Positions 4,024-37,300 of a DNA stretch of 64,000 bases are shown in pieces. Every line of letters starts with the position of its first letter. The stretch's first letter is position 1. Both the position numbers and the translations under genes were made by a program. The stretch is taken from NCBI GenBank assembly GCA_963792735.1, contig CAWBXK010000008.1, positions 14,306 through 78,305 on the forward strand, written 5' to 3'. This DNA is from an uncultured Solirubrobacterales bacterium (GTDB lineage: Bacteria > Actinomycetota > Thermoleophilia > Solirubrobacterales > Solirubrobacteraceae). Under the pieces are notes generated by a model. That model saw only the letters and a list, made by a program, of their open reading frames with translations, ran no database searches and was not told where the DNA came from.

Positions 4024-4720
4024 CGCGGGGGCGGGCGCGGGCACGTCCCGGTGTCGCTGAGCCGCAGCATGAACGTCGAGGTCGCCACCGGCGCGGGCCT
4101 GACCGAGGCGCTGGCGGGGGTCGATCTCGTCGTCGACGTCGCCAACGCCGGCACGACCGAGGAGGCCGCGGCCACGGCGTTCTTCACCCGCGCCGCCGGC
4201 AATCTGCAGCAGGCGGCGGCCGCGCAGGGCGTGGAGCGGATCGTGACCCTCTCGATCGTCGGGATCGACCGTGCACCGTTCGGCTACTACGCGGCCAAGC
4301 TCGCGCACGAGCAAGCGGCCCACGACGGCCCGGTCGCGTCCACCATCCTGCGCGCCACGCAATTTCACGAGTTCGCCGGGCAACTGATCGCCGCCACCCG
4401 GCGTGGCGGGACCGCCAGCGTGTTTGACCTGCGTGCAGACCGTGGCCGCCCGGACCGTCGCCGAGGCGCTCATCGACGCCTGCGAGAGCGCGCCGCAGCC
4501 GCGCGTGCCGGACCTGGGTGGCCCCGAGCCGGCCTGGCTGGTCGAGCAGGCCCGGGCGTTCGTGGCGCGGCGGGACGAGCCGATCGAGATCGTCGCCGAC
4601 AGCGGGACCATCGCTGGGCTTCCCGTCGACGCGCTGCTGCCCGGCCCCGACGCCCGGCTCGCCGGGCCGACGTTTACCCGCTGGCTGGACACCGAGGATG
4701 CGGCCGCGCTGTCCCTCTGA
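4024..4720 (+). pseudogene. NAD(P)H-binding NmrA/atypical SDR family protein, 5'-truncated and frameshifted
   Basis: GHVPVSLSRS...GAGLTEALAGVDLVVDVAN...YYAAKLAHE...TILRATQFHEF, then a frame change at about 4432 to VQTVAARTVAEAL...DLGGPE. The N-terminal GxxGxxG motif is missing (in-frame TGA at 4015). Confidence 0.7.
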
Positions 4721-4763
4721 TGACGAGAGGAGGCGCGTACGCCGGCAGCGACCTACTCCGGCG

Positions 4764-5975
4764 TCAGAGCTGGTCGGCCACCGGCTCGCTCAGGATGATG
4801 GCTGCTGATGCCGCAATCAGGTTGATCGCCGTGAACCCGATGATCAGCGCGAGCGGGTCGTGGACGAGCCCTCCGAGCGCCGCGCCGCCGGCGATCGTCA
4901 GGCCCGACAAGCTGCTGACGGTGGTCATCACCTGGGCCCGGACCGCCGGCGGGGCGTGGCGCTGGCGGAGCGCGATCGTGCCGGAGTAGGCCGGCCCTTC
5001 GAGAAAGCCCGTCAGCCCGATGAGGGCGACACCAACCGCGAGCGTTCCGGCCAGCGGCCAGAGCAATGCCGACAGAGCGAGGATCCCGTAGGACAAGCCG
5101 ACGCGGCGCAGTCCCGGCGGGCCGTGCAGGACGAAGGTCCCGAGGATTGAACCGGCCGCCACCGCCGCCCAGAGGTATCCGCTGGTGTGCGCCGGGCTGT
5201 GCAGCGTCTGGACCGCGTAGAGAGGGAAACCGACCAGCATCAGTCCCCAGCCGAACGCGGCCATGCTGCCCGAAAAAGAGGTTGCCAGCAGCGTCCGCTC
5301 GCGCGCGAGGGCCCGCAGACCACCACGGAGCGCCTGAGTCAAGCTCGGGGAGCGGTCGCGGCCCCTGGCCTCAAAGGCGGGGTTCAGCGCCACCAGCACG
5401 GCAACGATCACGGTCAGCGCCGCCTGCAGCTCGACCGTTCGCGCAGCCCCGATCGCTCCCGCGAGCACGCCGGCCAGCGCGGGACCGATGATCACCGCCA
5501 GGTTGAGGCTGGTGGCCTCGACCGTGCTCGCCTGGTCAAGCAGCTCTGGACCGGCGATGTCGGCCAGAGCGCTGAAGAAGCTACCCGTGCTAAGCGGCCG
5601 CGTGATGCTGTACAGAGCGGCCACCGCAGGCACCGTCCAGCCTGGCGCGTGGCCGGCGAGCGCGACGATCGCCAGCAGCCCCGCGACACTCAACAGCTGG
5701 TCGAACACGATCAGCACGCGCCGGCGACGGACGACATCGAGCCACGCGCCGAGCACGGGACCGGCCAGCGCACCGGGCACGACAGCCGCCGCGGCCGTCG
5801 CTCCCGCCAACGGCGCATTTCCCGTCCGCACCAGGACCAGAAGCACCCCGGCGGTGTTGAACATCGTCGCGCTCGTCCGTGACAGGGCAACGGTCAGCAC
5901 AAACCCGGGATAGCGCGGGCGCCGCCATAGGCGGCGAAAGGCACTCTCAGAGCCGGTCAGCGGAGACGACGCCAT
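4764..5975 (-). CDS. MFS transporter
   Basis: About 12 hydrophobic segments; GAWLDVVRRRRVL resembles MFS motif A. Confidence 0.85.
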   Translation of the reverse strand: MASSPLTGSESAFRRLWRRPRYPGFVLTVALSRTSATMFNTAGVLLVLVRTGNAPLAGATAAAAVVPGALAGPVLGAWLDVVRRRRVLIVFDQLLSVAGLLAIVALAGHAPGWTVPAVAALYSITRPLSTGSFFSALADIAGPELLDQASTVEATSLNLAVIIGPALAGVLAGAIGAARTVELQAALTVIVAVLVALNPAFEARGRDRSPSLTQALRGGLRALARERTLLATSFSGSMAAFGWGLMLVGFPLYAVQTLHSPAHTSGYLWAAVAAGSILGTFVLHGPPGLRRVGLSYGILALSALLWPLAGTLAVGVALIGLTGFLEGPAYSGTIALRQRHAPPAVRAQVMTTVSSLSGLTIAGGAALGGLVHDPLALIIGFTAINLIAASAAIILSEPVADQL

Positions 5976-6076
5976 GCCGCCATCTTGCCGCAGCTTCCAG
6001 CCCTCTCGAGGTCGGTTTGCCGGGCGCGGGGGCGCGGGTATCTCTGCGCCACTGCATACGGTCGGGAGGAGAACTC

Positions 6077-8737
6077 ATGTCCAGAGGGACGATCGGGACC
6101 GGGGCGATCCGGCGCGGGATCATCGGCGCGGGGAGCGTCTGCGCGGTGGTGGTTGCGGCCGCGTCCATGGCGGCGCCGGCCCTGGCGTCACCGCGCGCCG
6201 CTGCACCCTCGGGCGAGGCTCCGGGTGGTCCGGGCGCCACCTCCTACCTGGACGTGGCCCGCAAGGACTGTTTTGGGACGGCGCGCAACACCACGTCGAA
6301 GGTTTGGTTCACCGTGGCCGGTGGGGTGCTGTCCGACGTGTTCAGCCCGACGATCGAGAACACCAACGTGAGCACCGTTCAGTACATCGTCACCGACGGG
6401 CGCACGTTCGCCGACCTGCAGCAGCGGGACATGACCTACTCGGTGAGCTCGCCGGATCCGAGCGGCATGGTCTGCCGGGTGACGAGCATTGACCGCGCTC
6501 ACCGCTTCCGTCTGGTCAGTGACTACGTCGCCGATCCGGCGCGTGACAGCGTCGTCATCCACACGACGCTGATGCCGATCGGCGGGGGCGTGCGCTCGGT
6601 CCGCAAGCTCAAGGTCTACGTCCGCTATGACGCCACCATCGACAACACGGGCGGCGGCGGCGCGGCCAATGGAGGCCCCAACAACGCCACCATCGATCCG
6701 GCGACGACGGCTCTGGTCTCCTCCGACACCACCACTCCGACCGGTCCGTTCTCGGCGCAGGTCGTCGGCGCGCTGGTGGCCGATCACCGCTTCCGGACGG
6801 AGTCCAGCGGGTTCGTCGGCAGCGCCAACGACGGCCTGAACCAGCTCGATGCCCGCCACCGCCTCGTCGCCGAGTACCGCTCGGCGGTCGACGGGAACGT
6901 CGTTCAGACGGCCCGCGTGGCTATGAAGCCGGGACGGCCGTTCACGCTCGCGCTGGGATTCGCGCCGGACGCCCCCGGGGCGATCGCCGCGGCCAGGGGC
7001 AGCGCCGCGGCGCCGTTTGCGCGGACGCTGGGGCAGTATGTGGCCGGCTGGCGCAGCTACGACGCCGCTCTGCGCCGCCCACCGCGGCGCCTGGCCGGGC
7101 TCACCGACGCCCAGAACGCCGCGATGAAGAGCACCTACTGGGTGTCGGCGAACGTCATCAAGGCCGCCGAGGACAAGACGAACATCGGGGCGTTCGTGGC
7201 CTCACCGACCGACCCGTGGGGCCAGTCGGTTCCGGCCGCCACCACGCACGCCGGGTGGACCTACCGGGAGGTGTTCGCCCGTGACAGCTACGAGACGTTC
7301 ACCGGCCTGCTCGCCGACGGCGACACGGCCAGCGCCAGGGACATGACCCTGTTCCTGTTCGACCGCGTCCAGCAGCCCGACGGGAGCTTCCCCCGCGACT
7401 CCGAGCTCGACGGCACGGTCGCCCCCGACACGTTCGGGCTATCGGAGATCGACGAGGTCGCCTACCCGCTGCTGATGGCGTGGGAGGCCGGGCTGGCCGG
7501 GAACGTGGCCCTCTACCGGGACCACATCCGGCCGGCGGCGGATTACATCGTCGACCACGGCCCGAGCACAGGCGCCGAGCGCTGGGAGGAGCATCCGGGG
7601 TTCTCGCCGGCGACGATCGCGTCGGAGATAGCGGGCCTGGTGGCGGCGGGCAAGCTGGCCACCGCGGCCGGCGATACTCCGCGCGCCCATCTGTACCTTG
7701 CCACCGCCGACTACTACCAGCGCAACGTCAAGCGCTGGACGGTGACCACGACCGGTCCCGACGGGCCCCGGTACTTCATCCGCGAGTCGGTCGACGGCCA
7801 CCCCAACACGGCACAGACCTACGACCTCGGCAACGGCAGCCTCAGCCACGTCGACCAGCGCTCGATCATCGACGCCGGCTTCCTGGAGCTGACACGGATG
7901 GGCGAGCTGTCCGCGCGCGATCCCGACGTCCGGGCATCGCTGCGCGTTGTCGACTCCGTGCTGAAGCGCCAGACCAGGTCGGGCCCCGGCTGGCACCGCT
8001 ATGGGATCAAGGCCCCCGGCGCCACCGACGGCTACGGAGACTGCTACATGCCGGATCCGACCACCTGCGCGCCGACGGGCGAGCCGTGGTTCACGCACGC
8101 GGTCGGCTCCGGTCACCTGTGGCCGCTGCTCACCGGCGAGCGCGCCGAGCAGGACCTCCAGTCGGGCGCCAAAGCTGCCGCTTCCGGCTTGGCGGTCGAT
8201 TTCCAGCGGATGACCTGGGGCTTGGGATACGTGCCCGAGCAGGCGTGGGAGGACCCTGACACACCGGCGTCGCCGTTCGGAGCGGACCCCACCACCGCCT
8301 CGATCGGCTTCAGCAACGGCCAGGCCGCCGGCTCCGCTACCCCGTTGATCTGGGGCCAGGCGCAGTACCTGAGGCTGGTGCTCGACCTCCAGTCCGGCAC
8401 TCTGATCGATCAGCCGCAGATCACCCGCGCCCGGTATCTGGGGCCGGCGGCGCCGGCGGACGTGCCGGTGGCGATCACTTCGCCGGCCAACGGCGCGACC
8501 GTGAGCGGCGCCAGCACGGTCGTGACCGGGACGACGAAGCCGGGGGCACGAGTGGACGTGGCCGCCGGTCAGCCGGGATCTCCGGCGAACGCCACCGCCG
8601 TGGTGGCGACCGTCGCCGACTCCCACGGTGCGTACGCGGCCACGATCCCGACTCCCTCCGCGACGACGATCATCACCGTGGCGGCCACGGTCGGCGCGCA
8701 GGCCACGGGCTGGGCTCAGGAATCGGTGACGGGCTAA
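6077..8737 (+). CDS. Secreted glucodextranase/glucoamylase (GH15)
   Basis: GGGAGGAG RBS before ATG 6077; signal peptide; SKVWFTVAGGVLSDVF (glucodextranase N domain), YREVFARD, ERWEE, GHLWPLLTGER, YVPEQAWE. Confidence 0.88.
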   Translation: MSRGTIGTGAIRRGIIGAGSVCAVVVAAASMAAPALASPRAAAPSGEAPGGPGATSYLDVARKDCFGTARNTTSKVWFTVAGGVLSDVFSPTIENTNVSTVQYIVTDGRTFADLQQRDMTYSVSSPDPSGMVCRVTSIDRAHRFRLVSDYVADPARDSVVIHTTLMPIGGGVRSVRKLKVYVRYDATIDNTGGGGAANGGPNNATIDPATTALVSSDTTTPTGPFSAQVVGALVADHRFRTESSGFVGSANDGLNQLDARHRLVAEYRSAVDGNVVQTARVAMKPGRPFTLALGFAPDAPGAIAAARGSAAAPFARTLGQYVAGWRSYDAALRRPPRRLAGLTDAQNAAMKSTYWVSANVIKAAEDKTNIGAFVASPTDPWGQSVPAATTHAGWTYREVFARDSYETFTGLLADGDTASARDMTLFLFDRVQQPDGSFPRDSELDGTVAPDTFGLSEIDEVAYPLLMAWEAGLAGNVALYRDHIRPAADYIVDHGPSTGAERWEEHPGFSPATIASEIAGLVAAGKLATAAGDTPRAHLYLATADYYQRNVKRWTVTTTGPDGPRYFIRESVDGHPNTAQTYDLGNGSLSHVDQRSIIDAGFLELTRMGELSARDPDVRASLRVVDSVLKRQTRSGPGWHRYGIKAPGATDGYGDCYMPDPTTCAPTGEPWFTHAVGSGHLWPLLTGERAEQDLQSGAKAAASGLAVDFQRMTWGLGYVPEQAWEDPDTPASPFGADPTTASIGFSNGQAAGSATPLIWGQAQYLRLVLDLQSGTLIDQPQITRARYLGPAAPADVPVAITSPANGATVSGASTVVTGTTKPGARVDVAAGQPGSPANATAVVATVADSHGAYAATIPTPSATTIITVAATVGAQATGWAQESVTG

Positions 8738-8751
8738 GGGTGAACGCGCAG

Positions 8752-8775
8752 GCCGCCGGCGGCGTCGCCGGCGGC
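8752..8775 (+). terminator. GC-rich hairpin after the GH15 gene
   Basis: GCCGCCGGC-GGCGTC-GCCGGCGGC is a perfect 9-bp inverted repeat 14 nt after the stop; no U-tract. Confidence 0.45.
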
Positions 8776-8856
8776 TCGTCGGATCGATAAGTGCTCCGAC
8801 GTCATCACAATTACCAGCCGGTTGCATTAGCGCCCGAGTGGTCATAGGTTCTCGCT

Positions 8857-10002
8857 GTGCCACCGGCGTCGCGATGGGAGCGCGTGAAGGGTTCGATGTC
8901 CCCCCGGGAGTGGCGGCAGGCCGGGGGGATGGCGGCGGTGATCGCGGGGCTGCACGTGATCGGGTTCGGGATCCTGATCCTGGTCGTGGCACCCCACAAG
9001 TACAGCCTCGGGTCCTCGGGCACGTTCGCGATCGGGACCGGAGTGACCGCCTACACGCTCGGTCTGCGCCACGCCTTCGACGCCGATCACATCTCGGCCA
9101 TCGACAACACCACGCGGAAGTTCATGAGCGAGGGCAAACGGCCGTTGAGCGTCGGGTTCTTCTTCTCACTCGGGCACTCCACGATCGTGTTCGGTCTTGC
9201 GTTTCTGATCGCAGTCGGTGTCAAGGCGCTCGCCGATCCGGTGCGCCACACCGGGTCACTGCTGCACGGGACGACCAACGTCATCGGCACGACGGTGTCG
9301 GGAACGTTTCTCTATGTGATCGCGATCCTGAACATCATCATCCTGGTCAGCATCGTGAAGATCTTCTTCGAGATGCGCCGCGGCACCTACAGCGAGGAGC
9401 AGCTGGAGAAGGAGCTCAACTCGCGCGGGCTGATGAGCCGCCTGTTCGGCAGGCGCCTGAACAAGATCAAGCAGCCGCGGCAGATGTACCCCGTCGGCGT
9501 GCTGTTCGGCCTGGGGTTCGATACCGCGACCGAGGTCGCGCTGCTCGTTATCGCCGGGAGTGCCGGGGCGGCCGGCCTGCCGTTCTACGCGATCATCTGC
9601 CTGCCGGTCCTGTTCGCCGCCGGGATGTCGCTGCTTGACACGATCGACGGGTCGTTTATGAACTTCGCCTACGGCTGGGCGTTCTCGAAGCCGGTCCGCA
9701 AGGTCTATTACAACATCACGATCACCGGCCTGTCGGTTGCGGTCGCGCTGTTCATCGGCACGATCGAGCTGGTCGGCTTGATCACCCAGAAGCTCGGAAT
9801 GACCGGGTCGGTCGCCGACTGGTTTCAGAACTTCAACATCAACACCGCCGGGTTCATCATCGTCGCCATGTTCGTCGCGACCTGGGTGTTCTCGCTCGCG
9901 ATCTGGCGCTTCGCGCGGATCGAGGAGAGGTGGACCGCCGGGATGCAGCAGGCCGACGCCCGTTCAACCGCAGCCCTAAGCGGCGGAGTGATCGACCCAT
10001 GA
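8857..10002 (+). CDS. hoxN: HoxN/HupN/NixA (NiCoT) nickel/cobalt transporter
   Basis: Signature GLRHAFDADHISAID, FSLGHSTIV, LFGLGFDTATE; exact start uncertain. Confidence 0.92.
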   Translation: MPPASRWERVKGSMSPREWRQAGGMAAVIAGLHVIGFGILILVVAPHKYSLGSSGTFAIGTGVTAYTLGLRHAFDADHISAIDNTTRKFMSEGKRPLSVGFFFSLGHSTIVFGLAFLIAVGVKALADPVRHTGSLLHGTTNVIGTTVSGTFLYVIAILNIIILVSIVKIFFEMRRGTYSEEQLEKELNSRGLMSRLFGRRLNKIKQPRQMYPVGVLFGLGFDTATEVALLVIAGSAGAAGLPFYAIICLPVLFAAGMSLLDTIDGSFMNFAYGWAFSKPVRKVYYNITITGLSVAVALFIGTIELVGLITQKLGMTGSVADWFQNFNINTAGFIIVAMFVATWVFSLAIWRFARIEERWTAGMQQADARSTAALSGGVIDP

Positions 10003-10577
10003 CCGTCGCTGCACAGACACCGCCGCTCGCATTCGACACGATCGAGGAGGCGATTCGTGCGGTCCGCGCGGGAGGCATGCGCCTCTCCACCCCCCGGCGT
10101 CTCGTGCTCGAGGCGTTCTTCGCCGCCGACGGCCCGGTCTCGGCGGTGCACCTCGCGCACACCCTGTCGATCGACGAGTCGTCGGTCTACCGAAACCTGG
10201 AGGTGCTCGAGCACCACGGGCTGATCCGCCACGTCCACCTCGGACACGGACCAGGCCTCTACGCACTCGTCGGGCGCCATGAAGTCGAATATCTCTACTG
10301 CGAGCGATGCGCCAAGGTCACCGCCGTCACACCCAAGCAGCTGGACCCCGTGCGCAAGAGCATCAAGCAGCGATTCGGCTACGAGGCACGATTCACCCAC
10401 TTCGCGATCGTCGGGCTCTGCGAACGCTGCGCCGCGAGTCCGCCCCCGGTCACAAATCCGACTGACGAACACGCCTCACGTGGTCAATCCCACGGCGGCG
10501 ATCTCCACACCCACGGCAACTACGTCCACTCGCACCCTAACGTTCACGCCTCCCACGAAGAGCACTCGCGGGCCTGA
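9999..10577 (+). CDS. Fur-family metalloregulator, Nur-like, with His-rich tail
   Basis: ATGA overlap with NiCoT stop; SSVYRNLEVL helix, HVHLGHG, CERC...HFAIVGLCERC, tail HGGDLHTHGNYVHSHPNVHASHEEH. Confidence 0.85.
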   Translation: MTVAAQTPPLAFDTIEEAIRAVRAGGMRLSTPRRLVLEAFFAADGPVSAVHLAHTLSIDESSVYRNLEVLEHHGLIRHVHLGHGPGLYALVGRHEVEYLYCERCAKVTAVTPKQLDPVRKSIKQRFGYEARFTHFAIVGLCERCAASPPPVTNPTDEHASRGQSHGGDLHTHGNYVHSHPNVHASHEEHSRA

Positions 10578-10644
10578 ACCGCAACGTCGCGGCTCCTACG
10601 ACTCGCACCGAGCGCCGCAGAGCTCGTCATCGAGTACGGTTCGG

Positions 10645-11100
10645 ATGGACGCGATGGACGGCAAGCGAGTGCTGGTGGTCTTTGAACCGGGGCGTGGTGG
10701 GGCGGCCGTCCTCGAGCTGGCTCGCGAGCTCGCCGAGCGCCAGGGTGCCACGCTGACTGTCGTCAGCGTCGTCCCTCAGGTGGGGTCGGGTGCGCGTTGC
10801 GGGTACTCGCCGCTCGACTACAACCTCGCCCTCCAAGACTCCGTCGTCAAAGACCTGGACCACGCGCGCGCGTGGCTCGAGGAGTTCGGCGCTCGCGCCT
10901 CCTACGAGTTGCTGATCGAGCGCGCGTCGTCGTCGCTCGGCGAATTCGCGGCGGCCAGTGGTGTCGACCTCGTGCTGCTGCCCGCGCGACACCGGCCGTT
11001 GCGAGCGCCCGGGCACCCTGCGGCAGACCGGCTGCGCGTCGCGACCGGGGCTGAGATCAAGGTCGTTGCCCCCCGGGCGCAACAACGGACGTGCCGCTGA
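10645..11100 (+). CDS. Universal stress protein family
   Basis: KRVLVVFEPGRGGAAVLELARELAERQGATLTVVSV ... VDLVLLP. Confidence 0.75.
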   Translation: MDAMDGKRVLVVFEPGRGGAAVLELARELAERQGATLTVVSVVPQVGSGARCGYSPLDYNLALQDSVVKDLDHARAWLEEFGARASYELLIERASSSLGEFAAASGVDLVLLPARHRPLRAPGHPAADRLRVATGAEIKVVAPRAQQRTCR

Positions 11101-30137: not shown

Positions 30138-31112
30138 TCATCCTTCGCGGACGACCTGGCCGGCCGGCTTGTCGTCGCGCAGGCCCAGGAAGCGAGGGTG
30201 GCGCAGGCGCCCGTGCGAGGTCCATTCGGTGAAGCCGACCTGGGCGACCAGCGCGGGCTGCGTCCAGGTCACACCGCGCTCGCGGATCTGGGAGGCATCG
30301 GCGAACGGAGGCTCGGGTTGGGCCAGCTGGCGCAGGCGCGCGCCGAGGTCGCTCAGCGTCGGGCGATCGAACCCGGTCCCCACCTTGCCCGCGTAGCGGA
30401 GGCTGCCGTGATCGTAGTAGCCCACCAGGAGGGCTCCGAACTCGGTGCGCGAGCCGTGCGGGGACGTGAAGCCGCCGATCACCAGCTCCTGTCCCTGCTC
30501 GCACTTGAACTTCAGCCAGTCCCGCGAGCGGGTTGTGACATAGGGACTATCGGCGCGCTTGGCGATCAGTCCCTCCCAGCCCTTGCGGCAGGCCTCCTGA
30601 AACCACTCCTCGCCCGTCTCGTTGCGATGCGGGGTCAGCCGCACACCGTCGGCGAACGTCAAGGCCGCCCGCAACAACCGCTTGCGGCTGCGCAGCGGCA
30701 GCGGCCTGACGTCGCACCCGTCCACCCACAGCAGGTCGAAGACGTAGTAGAACACCGGCACGGGATGTCGCCCGCGCTGGGCGAGCCGGGCGAAGCTGGT
30801 CCGCGACCCGTCGAAGGCCACGATCTCCCCGTCGACGGCGAATCGCTCGCACCGCTCGATCTCCAGCGCGGCGGCGATCTCGGGGTAGCGACCGTTGAGC
30901 GACAGGTCGTTGCGCGAGAGCATGCGCACATGCTCCCCGGAGCGGATCGCCACACAGCGGATCCCGTCGAGCTTGCGCTCGAAGATCCAGTTCGGGTCGC
31001 TGAAGCGCTGCTTGGTCAGGACGGCCTTCATCACGTCTGCGCGCTCCGGGGGGTCGCTGGCGGGCACCCGCGAGCGCTCGGCCGGCCCGAGCTCGTCAAC
31101 GACGGAGCTCAT
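30138..31112 (-). CDS. ligD: ATP-dependent DNA ligase, stand-alone LigD ligase domain
   Basis: ERKLDGIR (KxDG), VDGEIV, YYVFDLL, EGLIAKRADSPY, WLKFK, GRLRHPRFLGLRDDK. Confidence 0.93.
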   Translation of the reverse strand: MSSVVDELGPAERSRVPASDPPERADVMKAVLTKQRFSDPNWIFERKLDGIRCVAIRSGEHVRMLSRNDLSLNGRYPEIAAALEIERCERFAVDGEIVAFDGSRTSFARLAQRGRHPVPVFYYVFDLLWVDGCDVRPLPLRSRKRLLRAALTFADGVRLTPHRNETGEEWFQEACRKGWEGLIAKRADSPYVTTRSRDWLKFKCEQGQELVIGGFTSPHGSRTEFGALLVGYYDHGSLRYAGKVGTGFDRPTLSDLGARLRQLAQPEPPFADASQIRERGVTWTQPALVAQVGFTEWTSHGRLRHPRFLGLRDDKPAGQVVREG

Positions 31113-31705
31113 TGCGGCTCCTCCTCGGCGACCTGCTCGACGGTACGGCCGGATTTGACCGATTCCGGCTGGCTGCTCTGGGGGTTGCGCCGGGCGTCGG
31201 CGCCCTCGTCACGGCGCTTGATCAGCAGCCACTGGGGCTTGGCGCCCCCTCGAGTCCGCTGCAGGGTCCATCCGCCGTTGAGCTTGCGGCCCTCCAGCCA
31301 CACCTTGGCGTGGCCGGCGTCGAGCGTCTCGGCGATCGGCCGCTCGTCGAGGTTGCGGTAGGTGCCGGCGTCCCACACGATCACGGAGCCCGCGCCGTAG
31401 TTGCCCTCGCCGATCACCCCTTCAAAGTCTGCGTACTCGAGTGGGTGATCCTCGACCTCGACGGCGAGCCGCTTCTCCCGCGGATCGGTGGACAGTCCCT
31501 TCGGCACCGCCCACGATCGCAATGTCCCGTCGACCTCGAGACGGAAGTCGTAGTGCAGGCTGGAGGCGGCGTGCTTCTGGATCACAAACCGCGGCTCGGT
31601 GCCACGACCGTCGGATCGCTTGCCGCGGCGACCTTCACGCACGCCCGGCTCACTCGTCCGCTCCGCATCTCGGCGGCCGCGGTAGCGCTCCAGTCGGTCG
31701 CTCAC
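31109..31705 (-). CDS. LigD 3'-phosphoesterase (PE) domain protein, stand-alone
   Basis: RFVIQKHAASSLHYDFRLEVDGTLRSWAVPKG, LAVEVEDHPLEY, VIVWDAGTY. Confidence 0.93.
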   Translation of the reverse strand: MSDRLERYRGRRDAERTSEPGVREGRRGKRSDGRGTEPRFVIQKHAASSLHYDFRLEVDGTLRSWAVPKGLSTDPREKRLAVEVEDHPLEYADFEGVIGEGNYGAGSVIVWDAGTYRNLDERPIAETLDAGHAKVWLEGRKLNGGWTLQRTRGGAKPQWLLIKRRDEGADARRNPQSSQPESVKSGRTVEQVAEEEPQ

Positions 31706-31819: not shown

Positions 31820-33352
31820 GTGAGGGCTGACGTGGAGGCGGCTCCGGAATTCGAGCTGCCCACCGTCGCGGCCGGACCGGTACGTCTCGCCGAACTGCGG
31901 GCTCATGGCCCGGTGCTGGTGTTGTTCGTGGCCGAGGAATGTCCCACCTGCGCTCTGACCCTGCGCCGGCTGGCGCCACTGGTGGGCGAGCTGCAACGAG
32001 CCGGGGTGGAGGTGGCCGCCGTGTTCGAGGACCCGCTCGAGGTGGCGGCGCGCACGGCGAGGCGGGCCGGTTTCACCGGCGCGGTGCTGTCCGAGCCGGA
32101 CCCGTACGCGGTCTCTCGGGCGTATGGGCTTGTCAGCGTCCCGACGATCGTGCTCGTCGATCGCCAGGGAAGGATGGCTCAGCGAGTGGTGGGCTGGGAT
32201 GCCGCCGGCCTCGATCGGATGCTCGGTGCGGCGTGCGAGTCGCTCGGCGCGAAGGCGCCGTTGGTTCCGGGCCAGGAGCCGCGCCGCAAGCCCGGCTGCG
32301 CGTCCAAGAGCACCTACGACGCAGACACGCTGGCGCTGATGGCGGGGGAAAGCGGGGTCGATGAGTACGAGGACATGTTCGAGCGCGGATGGTCCGACGG
32401 CCTGCCGGTCATACCGCCCACGGCGCAGCGCGTGGAGGCGATGCTGGCGGGCCGCGACCCCGCTCGCTCGCTCGGGCGCGCGCCGCCGGCGATGGGCGAG
32501 GTGACACTCGAGCGACTCGCCGCTTGCGCCGTGCTGGCGGGGTGCCGCCCGGACTACTTCCCGGTCGTCCTGGCGGCGGCGGAGGCGGCGCTCGCGCCGG
32601 CCTTCAACCTCGGTGGCCAGGCGGTGACGACTCAACCCGCCGGCCAGCTGGTGATCGTCAACGGACCGGTGCGCGAAGCGATCGGCCTCAACGGATCGAT
32701 CGGGGCACTCGGCCCCGGCACGCGCGCGAACATGACCATCGGCCGGGCGCTGCGACTGTTGGTGAGCCTGACCGGCGGCGGCTTCCCGGGCCGCCTGGAT
32801 CGAGCCACGCTCGGTCACTCCGGGAAGCTCGGGCTGTGTGTGGCCGAGGCCGAGGAGCAGAGTCCGTGGGAGCCGTTGCACGTGGAGCGCGGGTACGCGG
32901 CCGAGGACTCGGTCGTGACGCTGATCTCATGCGATGCGCCGCTTTCGATCTCAGACCACCGCAGCCGCGACCCGCAGGAGCTGGCCCACGTCCTGGGCTG
33001 GGCAGCGGCGGCGACGTGGAGTCCGAACTGGTGGCCGCTGGGAGGCGCCTCGCTGTTCGTGATCTGTCCTGAGCATGCCGGCCTGTTCCGGGCGGCAGGC
33101 TGGAGCAAGACGCGCGTGCGCGAGGAGATGTTCGCTGCGGTGCGCCGACCCGCGCACGAGCTGCGCTGGGGGGAGACCACACCGGAGGTTCACGCGGCGC
33201 CACCCGACGCGCCGATCGCCAAGTGGACGCGGCCCGAAGATATCGTCCTGATGGTGGCCGGCGGCGAGGCCGGCCGATACTCGGCGGTGTTCGGTCCGTG
33301 CCTCGGCATGGACGCTCAGATCATTTCCCAGGAGGTCACATGGAATACGTGA
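31820..33352 (+). CDS. Fusion protein: N-terminal TlpA/AhpC-TSA thioredoxin-fold domain + large domain of unknown function (GWSDGLPVIPPT type)
   Basis: APEFEL...VLFVAEECPTC...VPTIVLVDRQG, linker KPGCASK, then GWSDGLPVIPPT, NGPVREAIGLN, RANMTIGRALRL. Confidence 0.8.
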   Translation: MRADVEAAPEFELPTVAAGPVRLAELRAHGPVLVLFVAEECPTCALTLRRLAPLVGELQRAGVEVAAVFEDPLEVAARTARRAGFTGAVLSEPDPYAVSRAYGLVSVPTIVLVDRQGRMAQRVVGWDAAGLDRMLGAACESLGAKAPLVPGQEPRRKPGCASKSTYDADTLALMAGESGVDEYEDMFERGWSDGLPVIPPTAQRVEAMLAGRDPARSLGRAPPAMGEVTLERLAACAVLAGCRPDYFPVVLAAAEAALAPAFNLGGQAVTTQPAGQLVIVNGPVREAIGLNGSIGALGPGTRANMTIGRALRLLVSLTGGGFPGRLDRATLGHSGKLGLCVAEAEEQSPWEPLHVERGYAAEDSVVTLISCDAPLSISDHRSRDPQELAHVLGWAAAATWSPNWWPLGGASLFVICPEHAGLFRAAGWSKTRVREEMFAAVRRPAHELRWGETTPEVHAAPPDAPIAKWTRPEDIVLMVAGGEAGRYSAVFGPCLGMDAQIISQEVTWNT

Positions 33353-33858
33353 GCCCGATCGATCAGCGCCGCCGCGAGACGTTCCCGCTCGCGCCGCGCC
33401 CGTCCACGCTGCGCGGCGCGCAGATCGCGCTCCTGGACATCAACAAGCGGCGCTCGGATGAGTTCCTGGACCGGATCGAGGTCCGGTTGCGGGCGGAGGG
33501 AGCGCACCCGTTCCGGGTAGCCAAGACGATCTTCTCCAAGCCGGCGGCACCGGAGATCATCCGCCGTATTGCCAACCGTGGCGACCTCGTCGTCGAGGGT
33601 CTCGCCGACTGAGGGTCCTGCACGTCGTGCAGTGTGCACGACATGGTGACGTTGGAGCGTCTGGGCATCGCCACCGCGGCGGTGGCGACCGAGCCGTTCA
33701 TCGACGAGGCGCTGGAGCAGGCTCAGCTGCTCGGCATGCCGGACTACCGCATGGTGCTCACCCCGCACCCGGTGCAACTGCTCAGCGCCGCCGAACTGAG
33801 CGAGCAGGCCGACCGTGCCTGGCCCGAGATCGTCGGTCGGCTTCGCATCCCGCGGTGA
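33340..33858 (+). CDS. UGSC-family selenoprotein (Sec at codon 91, TGA 33610-33612), 172 aa
   Basis: GGAGG RBS before ATG 33340. Track ORFs 33223..33612 and 33634..33858 are in the same frame; joined sequence VVEGLAD-U-GSCTSCSVHD; hairpin downstream of the TGA. Confidence 0.85.
33624..33642 (+). promoter_or_regulatory. Putative bacterial SECIS element of the UGSC gene
   Basis: GTCGTGCA-GTG-TGCACGAC: perfect 8-bp stem with a G-initial loop 19 nt after the TGA. Confidence 0.75.
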
Positions 33859-33927: not shown

Positions 33928-34893
33928 ATGCCCTACAGGCTCGATAACGCCGAGACGGTGCCGGATGGGCTTCGCCGCTGCGCGCGTGAGCAGCTCGACA
34001 TCGCCATCGCCGAGCTCACCGAAGGAGTGCAGTCGGATCCGGTCAAGGCGGTTCACCGGGCGCGCAAGGCACTCAAGAAGGAGCGCTCGCTGCTTCGCCT
34101 CGGTAGGGATGCGTTCGCGCCCGGCGCGCGCAGGCGCGAGGCCAGAGTACTGCGCGGCGTGGCCCAGGACCTGAGCGCCGCTCGCGACGCTGACGTCATG
34201 GTCCAGACCCTCGACGAGCTCGCCGACCGGTTCGCCGGCCAGGTGCCGGAGGTGAGCTTTGCCGTGATTCGCGAACGCCTCGAGCTCCAGCGCGACGGCG
34301 CCCGGCTCCAGCTCGTCAACTCGGCCTCGATCGGCGACGCCGCGGCCGAGCTGATCGAGGCGGGACGCCGTCTGGAGGGCTGGCCCATCCGGGGCGGCGG
34401 CTGGCGCGTGGTCGGCGCTGGTCTGAGCCGGAGCTATCGACGCGGCCGCCGGGCCTCCAGGAAGGCGCGGGCGAACCCCACACCCGAGAACCTGCACGCG
34501 TGGCGCAAGCGGACCAAAGACGTCTGGTATGAGCTACGGCTGCTCGCGCCGATCGCTCCGGGCACGATGCGCGGGCAGGCCAAGGAGGCACACCGCCTGT
34601 CGGATCTGCTCGGCGACGACCACGACCTGTCTGAGCTGCGCCCGGCGATCGCCCGGATCGGCGGCGACATACCGGCTGACGTCGGCTCGGTGATCGGGCT
34701 GATCGATCACCGCCAGGATCAACTTCGGGCCGACGCCTTCTTCGCCGGCGAACGCCTATACGCCGAGACGCCGAAGGCGATGCGGCGGCGAGTCCGCCGG
34801 TATTGGGAGACGTGGCGGGCGGAGGGGCGAGCCGCCAGCTCACGCCGGCCGGCTGAGCTGGCCGATCAGCTTGCCAGCGCGACTGTCCACTGA
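33928..34893 (+). CDS. CHAD domain protein
   Basis: VHRARKALKKERSLL, RDADVM, LHAWRKRTKDVWY, LSDLLGDDHDL. Confidence 0.92.
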   Translation: MPYRLDNAETVPDGLRRCAREQLDIAIAELTEGVQSDPVKAVHRARKALKKERSLLRLGRDAFAPGARRREARVLRGVAQDLSAARDADVMVQTLDELADRFAGQVPEVSFAVIRERLELQRDGARLQLVNSASIGDAAAELIEAGRRLEGWPIRGGGWRVVGAGLSRSYRRGRRASRKARANPTPENLHAWRKRTKDVWYELRLLAPIAPGTMRGQAKEAHRLSDLLGDDHDLSELRPAIARIGGDIPADVGSVIGLIDHRQDQLRADAFFAGERLYAETPKAMRRRVRRYWETWRAEGRAASSRRPAELADQLASATVH

Positions 34894-34923
34894 CGAGCAC
34901 GTGTTCCAGAACAGGAGGCGACG

Positions 34924-35169
34924 ATGGCAAAGGATCACGGTCCGAGCGTCAAGAACGACAAGCAATACGAGGGTCTGCGCAAGAAGGGGATGAGCAAAGG
35001 CCGAGCGGCGGCCATCGCCAACACGCCGGACGCATCGAGCAAGGGCGGCAAGCGGTCGGGCAGCGGGCAGGCCAGCAGCCAGAGCCGCAAGAGCAGTGGC
35101 AGTGGCAGCGGCGGGAACCGCGCGCAGAAGGCCGCCGCGGGGAGAAAAGGCGGCAAGAAGTCAAGCTAA
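34924..35169 (+). CDS. Small basic Gly/Ser/Lys-rich hydrophilic protein
   Basis: AGGAGG RBS; MAKDHGPSVKNDKQYEGLRKKGMSKGRAAAIAN...AAGRKGGKKSS. Confidence 0.8.
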   Translation: MAKDHGPSVKNDKQYEGLRKKGMSKGRAAAIANTPDASSKGGKRSGSGQASSQSRKSSGSGSGGNRAQKAAAGRKGGKKSS

Positions 35170-35187
35170 AACGACGCGCCGAGAAGG

Positions 35188-35211
35188 GTTCACCGCCCGG
35201 TCACTTGGGTA
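35188..35211 (+). promoter_or_regulatory. SigB/SigF-type promoter candidate
   Basis: GTTC-N15-GGGTA, 11 nt before ATG 35223. Confidence 0.6.
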
Positions 35212-35222
35212 GCACAGACGCG

Positions 35223-35687
35223 ATGGCCGATCCGATCCAACTCCTGTCGCTGGAGCTTCCGTGCAACGAGCACGCGCCAGCCACCGTTCGGCAAGCTCTG
35301 GGCAACGCCGGCGCAGCACTTGCCCTGCTTCAAGACGGCCTGCTGGTGGCGAGCGAACTGGTCACCAACGCCGTCCTGCACTCGGGGTGTGAGGAGGATC
35401 ACCGACTCCGCGTCGGGGCCCGTGTGGTGGACGGCCGCCTGCTGATCTCGGTCCACGATCCCGGCATCACGCGGCAGGATGCCACGCCCCGGTGGGAGGC
35501 GAGCGCGCCGGAGGCGACGCAGCGGCCTCAGCCATCAACGGATGGCGCCGTGTCGGCAACCGGGGTTTCGCCAGGCGCACGGGTCGGAGGCTGGGGGTTG
35601 CGGATCGTGGATCAGCTCGCACGTCGCTGGGGTTCCGAGCGACCCGACGGTTATTGCGTGTGGGCGGAGCTTGCGCCCTCGTCATAG
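35223..35687 (+). CDS. ATP-binding protein (RsbW-like anti-sigma factor)
   Basis: LVASELVTNAVLHSG, ISVHDPG, GGWGLRIVDQLARRWG, VWAEL. Confidence 0.85.
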   Translation: MADPIQLLSLELPCNEHAPATVRQALGNAGAALALLQDGLLVASELVTNAVLHSGCEEDHRLRVGARVVDGRLLISVHDPGITRQDATPRWEASAPEATQRPQPSTDGAVSATGVSPGARVGGWGLRIVDQLARRWGSERPDGYCVWAELAPSS

Positions 35688-35840
35688 CGGCCCGGCCGGA
35701 GTGGTACTTTTAGTCGGCTAGCGGCAACGGATGAGCACATCGCGTCCGGGGTGGCGGCAGAGTCGCAAATAGCGGGACTCAGGGCGATCTGAACGGTCGT
35801 TCGGGGACCATCAGCGTTATCGAGGCGGATGATCTGATGC

Positions 35841-36236
35841 TTGCTCGCAACCAACCCCACCCGATCGCCAACCGGCGCCGATGCCGTGCGTGAGAACGTC
35901 CTCAGCGACTCTCCGGCCCCGGGGCATCTGCAAATACGACGCGTCGACGACGCGGATGGCACCGTGGTGGCACTCCATGGCGAGTTGGACCTGAGCTCCG
36001 CGCCCACACTCGAAACGCTGCTGCGCGAGCTTGACGACACCATCCCCGGCCGCATCCTGATCGATCTGCGGAAGCTGAAGTTCATGGACAGCAGCGGCCT
36101 CGCCCTGATGATCCGAGCGCAGCAGATGGCGTTGGCGGCCGGATACCGCCTCGAGCTGCGGCCCGGGCCCAATCAGGTACAGCGGTTGTTCGAGATGACG
36201 GGAACGCTCGACCGCTTCGACTTCGTCTCGGCCTGA
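35841..36236 (+). CDS. STAS-domain anti-sigma factor antagonist
   Basis: VVALHGELDL, LIDLRKLKFMDSSGL (phosphorylatable Ser motif); start uncertain. Confidence 0.9.
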   Translation: MLATNPTRSPTGADAVRENVLSDSPAPGHLQIRRVDDADGTVVALHGELDLSSAPTLETLLRELDDTIPGRILIDLRKLKFMDSSGLALMIRAQQMALAAGYRLELRPGPNQVQRLFEMTGTLDRFDFVSA

Positions 36237-36448
36237 CCTTCGGCGGAGACTCGTGGATCCGGGCCGGAGCATCCTCCTTTTGCCCTCGGACCGGGTTGCC
36301 TGGTGCCGAGGATGCCCTAAGCTAGGAAGCGAGCGCCCGTAGCGCGGACAATGGTGTAGCGGGAGTCGTTTCGAAGCAACCGGCAGACGATCGCCACGCG
36401 GTCTTCTGACGAGCTATCGCAAGGTTTGCGAATCTCGAAAGGAGACAG

Positions 36449-37300
36449 ATGGATAACGGCACGGTGTCGCCAGATGTAGCTCGCGCCCCGCGAGCAGCTG
36501 TACCGCTCGCTCCGGGGCGAGCTCACACCGATCTCAGCACCGCCGCTCTGTTTGACCGCTGGCGTCGTTTCGGCGATCAGACCGCGCGACAGGAGCTCGT
36601 CGGGCGTTACCTTCCCCTCGCCCGCAAGCTCGCATCGCGGTACATGAGCCCGTACGAGCCGTTCGAGGATCTGGTCCAGGTGGCCAGCCTCGGATTGCTC
36701 GGCGCGGTCGATCGGTTTGATCCCGAACGTGGGGTGGAGTTCTCCTCGTTCGCGATTCCGACCATCCTGGGGGAGCTCAAGCGCTACTTCCGCGGCACGG
36801 GCTGGTCGGCCCATGTTCCGCGGCGGGCCCAGGAGCTGGCGCTGAGGGTCGAGACGGCGTCGCGTCAACTCGCCGAGCGGCCCGGCCCGCCGCCATCGGT
36901 GGCCGAGCTGGCGCAGTATCTGGAGTTGACCACCGAAGAGGTGATCACCGGCCTGGAGGCCGGCTCAGCCCACTACTCGGTGTCGCTCGACGCGCCCCAT
37001 GCCGGCGCCGATAGCGAATCCGATCCGGAGTCCCTGACGGAACGGCTCGGCGATGTCGACGAGCGGTTCGGCCTGATCGACACCACCGTGTCGCTTTCGG
37101 CAGCGCTCACGCACCTCCCGCATCTCGAACGTCAAGCGCTCAGTCTGCGCCTGCGGGAGGACATGAAGCAGACCGAGATCGCCGCCCGTCTGGGCTGCTC
37201 TCAGATGCAGGTGTCGCGGTTGCTGCGACGCGCGGCATCCCGGCTCACCGAGCTCATCGATCCGAGCCGCGCCTCGGGCGGGTCAGCTCAGGACGGCTGA
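36449..37300 (+). CDS. SigB/SigF/SigG-family RNA polymerase sigma factor
   Basis: EDLVQVASLGLLGAVDRFDPERG, FAIPTILGELKRYFR, YSVSLD, QTEIAARLGCSQMQVSRLL. Confidence 0.95.
   Translation: MDNGTVSPDVARAPRAAVPLAPGRAHTDLSTAALFDRWRRFGDQTARQELVGRYLPLARKLASRYMSPYEPFEDLVQVASLGLLGAVDRFDPERGVEFSSFAIPTILGELKRYFRGTGWSAHVPRRAQELALRVETASRQLAERPGPPPSVAELAQYLELTTEEVITGLEAGSAHYSVSLDAPHAGADSESDPESLTERLGDVDERFGLIDTTVSLSAALTHLPHLERQALSLRLREDMKQTEIAARLGCSQMQVSRLLRRAASRLTELIDPSRASGGSAQDG

Follow-up and report, generated by a model that had tools for sequence, protein, structure and literature searches.

We identified, in a Solirubrobacterales bacterium, a two-gene module in which a selenoprotein of the UGSC family (gene B) is paired with a larger protein (gene A) made of a thioredoxin-fold domain, a cysteine-bearing linker and a large domain of an uncatalogued family, which we call the partner domain. 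Throughout, the window refers to the whole stretch of DNA that was analysed (64,000 nucleotides). UGSC and the partner domain are regularly found together in genomes, as neighbouring genes or as fusions, and we lean towards a single cytoplasmic thiol/selenol redox enzyme, equipped with its own thioredoxin module, of which the products of genes A and B would be the two subunits. UGSC (NF041046, PF24696) corresponds to the ‘UGSC-containing protein’ of Zhang and Gladyshev (PMC2398784). From the Sargasso Sea and GOS surveys onwards, it has counted among the most abundant selenoprotein families of the environment. The literature that we searched, including a 2026 review (PMC13188914), gives neither a function nor a partner for UGSC, in line with a preliminary description of this DNA that had called the family catalogued and functionally uncharacterised.

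The selenocysteine codon of gene B

The open reading frame track had split gene B (33340..33858, plus strand) into two pieces, which the preliminary description had placed in a single frame interrupted by one TGA. We found this to be correct: the sole stop between the ATG at 33340 and the TGA at 33856-33858 is the TGA at 33610-33612, and translation with TGA=U gives a joined product of 172 aa with Sec91, containing the predicted ...GLAD-U-GSCTSCSVHD.... Because this joined product matches both PF24696 (residues 3-168 of 172; E 2e-47, 161.9 bits vs. a cut-off of 25) and NF041046 (136.1 bits vs. a curated cut-off of 125), its two halves belong to one family member. Gene B shares with the UGSC family its D-U-G-S-C motif (residues 90-94), its downstream hairpin and its length, and shows no difference of its own. 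The redox motif U91-G-S-C94 occupies 33610..33621 on the plus strand (Cys94 at 33619-33621), with TGA or TGC/TGT at the aligned codon of the U in relatives; among 15 aligned members, position 91 is invariantly U or C, and C94 is at least 90% conserved. The earlier reading of a Sec followed by a CxxC is literally present (U91-G-S-C94-T-S-C97), but conservation is limited to U/C91 and C94; C97 is missing in Cys-type homologs, and its codon falls within the hairpin stem. The conserved selenium motif of UGSC is UxxC and not U plus a following CxxC. The start of gene B does overlap the stop of gene A, as had been noted, by 13 nt (ATG at 33340 vs. stop at 33350-33352), and a Shine-Dalgarno sequence, AGGAGG (33330..33335, plus strand), stands 4 nt ahead of the ATG; its position inside the end of gene A marks gene B, by its sequence context, as translationally coupled.

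Both TGA and Cys were found at the aligned codon of homologs, a check that the preliminary description had proposed, in our phylum sample as well as in other phyla. Within the phylum sample (301 genomes), one in-frame TGA was present in 18 of the 29 UGSC matches, while 11 matches were stop-free; at the loci of six of these, the aligned residue was seen to be Cys. Among loci from other phyla, about 60 of 69 UGSC genes carry TGA at the U codon. Cys-type UGSC/partner pairs occur in the cultured Candidimonas nitroreducens SC-089 and Natrialba asiatica DSM 12278. The excess of Sec over Cys forms is shared with the GOS data, which give a Sec:Cys ratio of 255:21 for UGSC (PMC2398784), and a ratio this high fits a catalytically demanding Sec. 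The Sec machinery, whose presence in the genome was likewise to be checked, is there in full: selA and selB are neighbours on contig C7, selD is on contig C9 and tRNA-Sec on contig C5 (anticodon TCA, ARAGORN), all above their family cut-offs.

Just 3' of the TGA lies a probable SECIS hairpin (33624..33642, plus strand; centroid fold), GUCGUGCA-GUG-UGCACGAC, with a perfect 8-bp stem and a GUG loop. The stem and loop are as previously described, but the distance of 19 nt given there is that from the TGA to the loop, and the stem begins at 11 nt. This spacing and the G-containing loop are those expected of a bacterial SECIS, a stem-loop directly 3' of the UGA. The hairpin is no more stable than shuffled sequence (z = +1.27 over 76 nt, z = -1.3 over 45 nt) in its GC-rich context, and no Rfam family matches it. 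A hairpin stands at the same place in 13 other Sec-type relatives, where 92% of cells pair; orthologs also show conservation at its synonymous sites, and it is weaker or missing in four Cys-type relatives. One compensatory change was seen, in the paralog, and values like those observed came up in 99 of 500 shuffles, so covariation is not significant. We rank it as a probable SECIS by virtue of its kept position in orthologs. A scan for promoters and terminators found nothing.

That TGA 33610 might instead be a real stop or a mutation, leaving two small unrelated ORFs or a pseudogene, would agree with the products of 90 aa and 71-75 aa that plain gene callers give in relatives. However, one family model covers both halves of gene B, dozens of diverged orthologs have TGA at this very codon and others have Cys, the genome holds the full Sec machinery and the hairpin is conserved. 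We rejected a genuine stop on these grounds, and consider such a reading scarcely credible. Gene B is, from its sequence, a true UGSC-family selenoprotein hidden from plain ORF calling, as had been claimed, and its UGA at 33610 would be recoded to Sec by the SelA, SelB, SelD and tRNA-Sec of this genome with the help of the downstream hairpin.

Architecture of gene A

Gene A (31820..33352, plus strand; ORF list and translation) encodes 510 aa comprising the thioredoxin-fold domain, the PGC linker and the partner domain; an alternative start, GTG at 31832, gives a product of 506 aa identical to the database product. The N-terminal domain (aa 6-120, 31835..32179, plus strand) is TlpA/ResA-like, and the AhpC/TlpA-like CPTC domain reported earlier is borne out by its match to PF00578 AhpC/TSA (E 1.2e-15, 58 bits vs. 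a gathering threshold of 26) and by its motif C41-P-T-C44 (31940-31951). It also matches Redoxin (E 5e-8), and its best NCBIfam match is the ResA model (E 5e-7, below cut-off). With the TlpA/ResA-type oxidoreductases it has in common the fold, the canonical position of its CxxC and a cis-Pro (VPT) loop; unlike them, it is cytoplasmic, having neither a signal peptide nor a membrane anchor, a conserved Cys-bearing linker joins it to a large enzyme-like domain, and its relatives often carry Ser or Thr in place of the second Cys. We ruled out a peroxiredoxin, as PxxxTxxC is absent and P31-VLVLFVAEE-C41-PTC has no Thr at -3.

The linker cysteine that had been pointed out in K-P-G-C160-A-S-K (32288..32308, plus strand; Cys codon 32297-32299) proved to be a lasting feature of the architecture. 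Nearly all thioredoxin-fused partners, across many phyla, have a PGC[GA]S[KRL] linker, including those with CxxS/T, so that the linker Cys is kept where the second Cys of the thioredoxin motif has become Ser or Thr. Of 80 partner loci, about 50 have a partner fused to a thioredoxin-like domain with the conserved PGC linker, as do 12 of the 25 partner matches in phylum loci, which fits a redox role.

The remainder of gene A, the partner domain (aa 165-510, 346 aa; 32312..33349, plus strand), had been described as a large domain without known function, and our searches agree: we found no Pfam, NCBIfam or PDB sequence match for it, and its AF2 model (pLDDT 92.9, pTM 0.89) gave no fold match in the PDB at E<=1e-3 by Foldseek. 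A likeness to class I fumarase or cyanuric acid hydrolase was discarded as noise (best Foldseek E 0.059, TM ~0.2), and PDB sequence searches with the gene A and gene B proteins returned nothing meaningful. The family comprises 4884 representative clusters (50% identity clusters) at E<=1e-3 and has about 30 near-invariant residues, the conserved positions including D193-G-L-P..P-T201, Cys242 at a helix N-cap (32543-32545), N304, R309, Cys340, an invariant Glu343 (32846-32848), W350 and His419 (33074-33076). Also in keeping with a redox role, one member of the family carries a fused ferredoxin-thioredoxin-reductase beta domain.

Linkage of UGSC and the partner domain

The claim that the two proteins work together, and the survey of gene neighbourhoods suggested alongside it, could be followed in the phylum sample and in 80 partner loci (at least 10 phyla plus one archaeon), and both bear out a conserved functional unit. 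Among the 301 genomes of the phylum sample, UGSC was found in 21, the partner in 22 and both in 21, and 27 of the 29 UGSC matches had a partner match within 800 bp on the same strand. An adjacent same-strand UGSC gene accompanied the partner at 67 of the 80 loci, and a fused UGSC domain was present in 37 of 150 partner-family representatives, in both orders; many gene calls of such fusions begin just past, or stop just short of, the Sec codon. A second paralogous UGSC/partner pair, also with a TGA, lies on contig C9 of the same genome. On this point, the literature that we searched notes only a ‘UGSC/Unknown_1’ fusion.

This pairing bears on an alternative in which the partner is a non-redox enzyme (a Cys-His-Glu hydrolase, transferase or isomerase with Cys242 as nucleophile), and UGSC and the thioredoxin-fold domain only keep Cys242 reduced or act as a redox switch on the enzyme. 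With Cys242 capping its helix, Glu343 invariant and His419 conserved, a nucleophile triad is conceivable; no cofactor-binding motif is present in the partner domain, a UGSC gene is missing within 7 kb of some thioredoxin-fused partners, and there are tandem double partners that lack UGSC. However, a dedicated stoichiometric pairing and frequent fusion with a selenoprotein would be a costly form of thiol protection, and the strong preponderance of Sec over Cys in UGSC speaks for catalysis; we regard this alternative as unlikely, while still deserving of attention.

Clustering of the neighbourhoods of the 80 loci did not reveal a third gene that recurs with the pair. SDR genes turn up often in these loci, but are distant and generic. 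By raw counts, a CoA-transferase family III gene occurs in 13 of 65 distant loci and is immediately adjacent in four; it is unlinked in this genome, the nearest copy being 16 kb from the C9 pair. The window locus itself adjoins LigD and an RsbW/RsbV/SigB-like stress module, a context kept in an 89%-identical ortholog. This setting, the AhpC/TSA and Redoxin matches of gene A and the thiol oxidoreductase-like character of most catalogued bacterial selenoproteins (PMC13188914) would suit an antioxidant or repair pair, in which Sec91 reduces peroxides or oxidised protein or small-molecule sulfur, the AhpC/TSA-like domain recycles it and the large domain serves as scaffold or substrate adaptor. On the contrary, the thioredoxin-fold domain lacks the peroxiredoxin signature and scores best as ResA/TlpA-like, a 346-aa domain with so many near-invariant residues is more enzyme-like than scaffold-like, and relatives further away do not keep the stress-gene context, which makes this role improbable in our estimation.

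Predicted fold of UGSC and the proposed selenoenzyme

For a structural view of UGSC, we used the model of a natural UGSC-partner fusion whose UGSC part is ~36% identical to gene B. The fusion was modelled as one rigid body (pLDDT 94.7, pTM 0.93); in this model, the UGSC part has a predicted five-stranded Rossmann/flavodoxin-like fold, and the U/C-G-S-C loop is placed between a strand and the N-terminus of a helix. Foldseek returned generic Rossmann/flavodoxin-like matches for the UGSC part (E 4e-4 to 1e-2), and no thioredoxin-fold protein stood among the 50 matches listed for the fusion. A thioredoxin-like fold was reportedly suggested for UGSC in 2008, counter to this Foldseek outcome. The more distant matches of the fusion model include small alpha/beta domains such as PTS IIB, and the linker of thioredoxin-fused partners repeats the U/C-G-S of UGSC as C-G-S; both could be read as signs of a role in sulfur or selenium handling, in which the pair would carry or reduce persulfide/selenide in place of an organic substrate. 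The Foldseek matches are generic, however, and no rhodanese, cysteine desulfurase, SelD or sulfur-relay gene recurs beside the pair in the 80 loci, leaving sulfur or selenium handling with a very modest share of our belief.

A further likeness is to selenoprotein B of the glycine and D-proline reductases (GrdB/GrdF/GrdH and PrdB; TIGR01917, TIGR01918, TIGR04483), which shares with UGSC a UxxC motif and, near the Sec, shows a weak local similarity to it that appears to be in register. TIGR01917 was matched by 10 of 15 UGSC members (E 3e-4 to 2e-2, each individually marginal), GrdF by eight and PrdB by two; the alignments span ~70 residues in one register, with the U near model position 350 (TIGR01917 ~326-398). 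All of these lie far below the selenoprotein B cut-offs (15.6 bits vs. 300 for PrdB, TIGR04483; at most 19.8 vs. 602 for GrdB). The preliminary description had proposed an electron relay from the thioredoxin-fold CxxC to Sec-CxxC, serving an unknown reductive enzyme in the large domain. The direction and nature of such a relay are conjectural: the conserved motif is UxxC, and relatives often have Ser or Thr for the second thioredoxin Cys while keeping the linker Cys. The similarity to selenoprotein B suggests that the Sec may be a catalytic nucleophile, beyond a relay station. Selenoprotein B acts together with a large, separate subunit that binds the substrate and with a dithiol reductant, and UGSC would do likewise. 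UGSC differs in being much shorter than GrdB, in having no GrdA/GrdC/GrdD-type genes near the pair, unlike Stickland-type reductases, and in its hosts, which are mostly aerobic soil and water bacteria and not amino-acid fermenters. Moreover, none of 42 partner-containing proteins matched a Grd/Prd model, even with the threshold relaxed to E<=1, Pfam (scanned with a 42-member subset of 121 family sequences) found nothing on the partner domain, and a GrdE/PrdA-like pyruvoyl proprotein was ruled out on the lack of Grd/Prd and Pfam matches. As the partner is unlike GrdE/PrdA or any other Grd/Prd subunit, the chemistry may differ entirely.

For the two-subunit redox enzyme that we favour, the following cycle can be envisaged. 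The partner domain would bind the substrate, with Cys242, Cys340, Glu343 and His419 as candidate catalytic residues, and Sec91 would act on the bound substrate or a partner disulfide, ending as a Sec91-Cys94 selenenylsulfide, a step that would resemble, by analogy, selenoprotein B of D-proline and glycine reductases. The thioredoxin-fold domain would then re-reduce the selenenylsulfide through Cys41, with Cys44 and/or the linker Cys160 as resolving thiol, and would itself be re-reduced by a cellular disulfide reductase. Going further, and with distinctly less confidence, we put forward the tentative possibility of an undescribed, very widespread selenoenzyme class, in which a mini selenoprotein-B-like Sec subunit and a catalytic subunit of a fold absent from solved structures, recycled by the built-in thioredoxin-fold module, perform a Stickland-like reductive bond cleavage of a metabolite in aerobic soil and water bacteria.

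The preliminary description had singled out this locus as the best candidate for an uncharacterised system in the window, a fair judgement, but the module is widespread. None of the outcomes that it had named as refuting its reading was observed. The partner family, with neither a Pfam or NCBIfam model nor a solved structural relative, marks a gap in the protein-family catalogues. The linkage of UGSC with the partner, often with its own thioredoxin-fold module, defines a working unit for which the question of function becomes testable, and the window provides a Solirubrobacterales example with two paralogous modules.

A UGSC-family gene interrupted by a single TGA

Gene A (31820-33352, plus strand, 510 aa) and gene B (ATG at 33340 to TGA at 33856-33858, plus strand, 172 aa on read-through) share a strand and, as the preliminary description had noticed, the start of gene B overlaps the stop of gene A: its ATG lies 13 nt within the 3' end of gene A, 4 nt after a plus-strand AGGAGG (33330-33335). 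A second in-frame GTG of gene A (31832, with GAGGG ahead) yields the 506-aa product found in the protein collection. The same description took gene B to be broken by one in-frame TGA, and TGA 33610-33612 is indeed the sole interruption of the frame. One family model covers both halves of the read-through product, which contains GLAD-U-GSCTSCSVHD (residues 3-168 match Pfam PF24696, UGSC, E 2e-47; NCBIfam NF041046, 'UGSC family (seleno)protein', 136.1 bits vs. a cut-off of 125), and from these matches we conclude that the two ORFs of a plain gene caller are halves of one UGSC family member. Public gene calls of UGSC in two relatives are split likewise (90 aa + 71-75 aa).

The Sec machinery was found in the window's own genome, with selA and selB adjacent on contig C7, selD on contig C9 and a tRNA-Sec (anticodon TCA) on contig C5, all above family cut-offs. 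TGA is otherwise an ordinary stop here, since genes A and B both terminate in it. Exactly one in-frame TGA is present in 18 of the 29 UGSC matches in a 301-genome phylum sample and none in the other 11, six of these stop-free loci having Cys aligned with U. We also drew 80 loci of the partner family (homologues of the C-terminal ~346 aa of gene A) from a species-representative genome collection; this other-phyla set covers Actinomycetota, Chloroflexota, Acidobacteriota, Myxococcota, Methylomirabilota, Binatia, Spirochaetota, Alpha-, Beta- and Gammaproteobacteria and the archaeon Natrialba. There the U codon is TGA in ~60 UGSC genes and Cys in 3, the motif being unresolved in a few, so that both TGA and Cys are seen at this codon in either sample. 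TGA 33610-33612 is very likely decoded as Sec, and the alternative that it is a true stop codon is hardly credible.

The perfect 8-bp hairpin with a GUG loop reported downstream of the TGA is present at 33624-33642 (plus strand, GUCGUGCA-GUG-UGCACGAC), starting 11 nt past the UGA. Its position is kept in 13 other Sec-type relatives, with standard pairs in 92% of pair cells; synonymous sites within it (ACG, TCG, GTG) are conserved, and the codons immediately 5' are variable. A paralog in the same genome carries a hairpin of different sequence in the same place, with one compensatory change (GUCCUGC-GGUCU-GCGGGAC), and in four Cys-type relatives the hairpin is weaker or missing despite a similar peptide. 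Covariation in the hairpin was not significant (observed values reached by 99/500 shuffles), its stability was not above that of shuffled sequence at the same GC content, and an Rfam search gave no matching family. The initial reading of Sec followed by a CxxC stands in part: U/C91-x-x-C94 is the conserved UGSC motif, and C97 is absent from Cys-type homologues (CGSCSAS, CGSCTAYS). The C97 codon falls within the hairpin stem, so what looks like a CxxC behind Sec probably arises from the RNA structure.

Pairing with the partner and genomic setting

Four independent lines, namely co-occurrence in the phylum sample, adjacency in other phyla, fusions and a paralogous pair, establish that genes A and B form one unit. 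Across the 301 genomes, UGSC occurs in 21, the partner in 22 and both in 21, and 27/29 UGSC matches have a same-strand partner match within 800 bp. A UGSC gene is present at 69/80 loci of the other-phyla set (two UGSC-less loci stop just past the partner gene) and is adjacent on the same strand at 67/80, a figure biased upward because the loci are those most closely related to the partner in the window. The UGSC domain is fused, in both orders, in 37/150 partner-family representatives; many of these gene calls start at UGSC residue ~100 or stop at ~90, which indicates that Sec-type fusions are truncated at the UGA by the gene caller. A full-fusion query returned 5799 partner-family proteins at E<=1e-20, with UGSC on many of the 120 listed, and NCBI names one matched protein 'UGSC family (seleno)protein'. 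A natural UGSC-partner fusion (P0261) was modelled as one rigid body (pLDDT 94.7, pTM 0.93). The paralogous pair lies on contig C9 of the same genome (~260.7-262.7 kb; ~4680-6700 of locus L022), where a short Trx-like domain (VKHDCPVC), the linker RPGCASR and a partner domain precede a UGSC gene with TGA (ADUGSCVSC); it is flanked by a gene for a divergent methylmalonyl-CoA mutase and, on its downstream side, by VOC/glyoxalase and SDR genes.

Among phylum loci L022-L042, the partner is Trx-fused in 12/16 Sec-type pairs and stands alone in 6/6 Cys-type pairs, counts that ignore shared ancestry; a locus of another phylum (L089) has a Cys-type UGSC with a Trx-fused partner. Cultured hosts of Cys-type pairs are Natrialba asiatica DSM 12278 (L116) and Candidimonas nitroreducens SC-089 (L120, ~6995-10961), the latter pair being followed directly by genes for a CoA-transferase family III protein and a thioredoxin-reductase-like flavoprotein.

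The window pair stands alone. Its neighbours on one side, encoded on the opposite strand, are an MFS transporter and a split LigD; on the other side lie the gene of a CHAD protein and a cluster of RsbW/RsbV/SigB-like type. An 89%-identical ortholog (L045) has the same arrangement. The split LigD genes (30138-31705, minus strand; ATP-dependent ligase domain 30138-31112, LigD_N phosphoesterase 31109-31705) diverge from the selenoprotein operon, as they do in L045. The downstream cluster (33928-37300, plus strand) encodes a CHAD-domain protein, a small lysine/serine-rich DUF7218 protein, an RsbW-like kinase, a STAS anti-sigma antagonist and a SigB-like sigma factor. The synteny of this cluster extends to L045, but relatives further removed do not retain it next to the pair. 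A 78%-identical ortholog (L043/L044, 3239-8526) has genes for an aromatic amino-acid lyase and an amidohydrolase ahead of the pair, neighbours that may hint at the substrate in an arrangement not seen in the window; there the amidohydrolase stop overlaps the partner start, and cysteine dioxygenase is encoded downstream, on the opposite strand. Neighbour clustering of all 80 loci gave no recurrent third gene: SDR genes are frequent and distant, and CoA-transferase family III occurs in 13/65 distant loci, at just four of them directly next to the pair. The unit is therefore the pair alone, and its context does not reveal the substrate; that it serves sulfur or selenium trafficking seems distinctly improbable.

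Domains of the two proteins

Residues 6-120 of gene A form a thioredoxin-fold domain (AhpC/TSA, E 1.2e-15; Redoxin, 5e-8; best NCBIfam model ResA, 5e-7, under its cut-off) holding C41-P-T-C44. The PxxxTxxC signature of peroxiredoxins is absent and gene A has no signal peptide, so the sequence identifies this domain as a cytoplasmic TlpA/ResA-like module. The proposal that the UGSC/partner pair is an antioxidant or repair system is one we rate as quite unlikely. A K-P-G-C160-A-S-K linker follows, and a Trx-like domain with a PGC[GA]S[KRL] linker precedes the partner in ~50/80 other-phyla loci and in 12/25 partner matches of the phylum loci. Trx-fused partners retain both the linker Cys and the first of the two Trx-motif Cys, and the second Trx Cys is often Ser/Thr (CPTS in many Solirubrobacterales relatives), a pattern suggesting that the linker Cys may serve as resolving thiol. 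In P0150, a 470-aa partner-family representative, a ferredoxin-thioredoxin-reductase beta domain (PF02943; NCBIfam FtrB double-selenoprotein model, E 7e-23) replaces the Trx-like module.

The partner domain (last 346 residues of gene A), singled out early as a large domain without recognised function, had no match in Pfam, in NCBIfam or among PDB sequences, and its family comprises 4884 clusters at 50% identity (E<=1e-3). Near-invariant positions (gene A numbering where given) are D193-G-L-P..P-T201, Cys242 in (M/L)AGC, NGP, GxGxRAN304..IGR309A, PGK, Cys340-x-A-E343 (Glu invariant), SPW350 and PEH419. An AlphaFold2 model from 121 sequences (pLDDT 92.9, pTM 0.89) found no solved structure by Foldseek at E<=0.001 (best E 0.059, TM ~0.2); in it, Cys242 falls between two helices and N-caps the second one, a placement that would be typical of an activated thiolate. 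That the partner is instead a non-redox enzyme, which UGSC keeps reduced or switches, is on balance unlikely. Tandem double partner domains (~710-740 aa) occur in P0132, P0135, P0137, P0142, P0158 and P0257 and on contig C272 of phylum-sample genome G281, in which no UGSC gene was detected.

The UGSC part of the fusion model is a five-stranded beta/alpha domain with the U/C loop between strand 3 and helix 3. Its Foldseek matches are generic Rossmann/flavodoxin-like proteins (EF-Tu G domain, lumazine synthase, azoreductase, PTS IIB), with no thioredoxin-fold protein among the 50 listed for the fusion model. UGSC members repeatedly match the region around Sec in selenoprotein B of Stickland-type reductases, in register and below threshold: of 15 members, 10 matched TIGR01917 (best E 3e-4), 8 GrdF and 2 PrdB, in alignments of ~70 residues (model positions 326-398). 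This suggests a possible remote homology of UGSC with the Sec-bearing part of GrdB/PrdB. The partner domain has no similarity to the pyruvoyl proproteins GrdE/PrdA or to any other Grd/Prd subunit.

A proposed cycle and the standing of the module

The joint reading towards which we lean, with some reserve, is of a redox enzyme: the partner domain would bind the substrate; Sec91 would act on the substrate or a partner disulfide, giving a Sec91-Cys94 selenenylsulfide; Cys41 of the Trx-fold domain, with Cys44 or Cys160, would reduce this bond; and a cellular reductase would complete the cycle.

The UGSC family has been in catalogues since the mid-2000s and is still uncharacterised according to a 2026 review (PMC13188914). 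A 'UGSC/Unknown_1' fusion is on record, in which Unknown_1 may correspond to the partner domain; no account of the partner family or of the Trx-fused architecture turned up in our literature search. The UGSC/partner module is genuine and well conserved, and as a selenoprotein system it is still uncharacterised; the window itself adds little that is unique, and the module is of solid interest to selenium biology.
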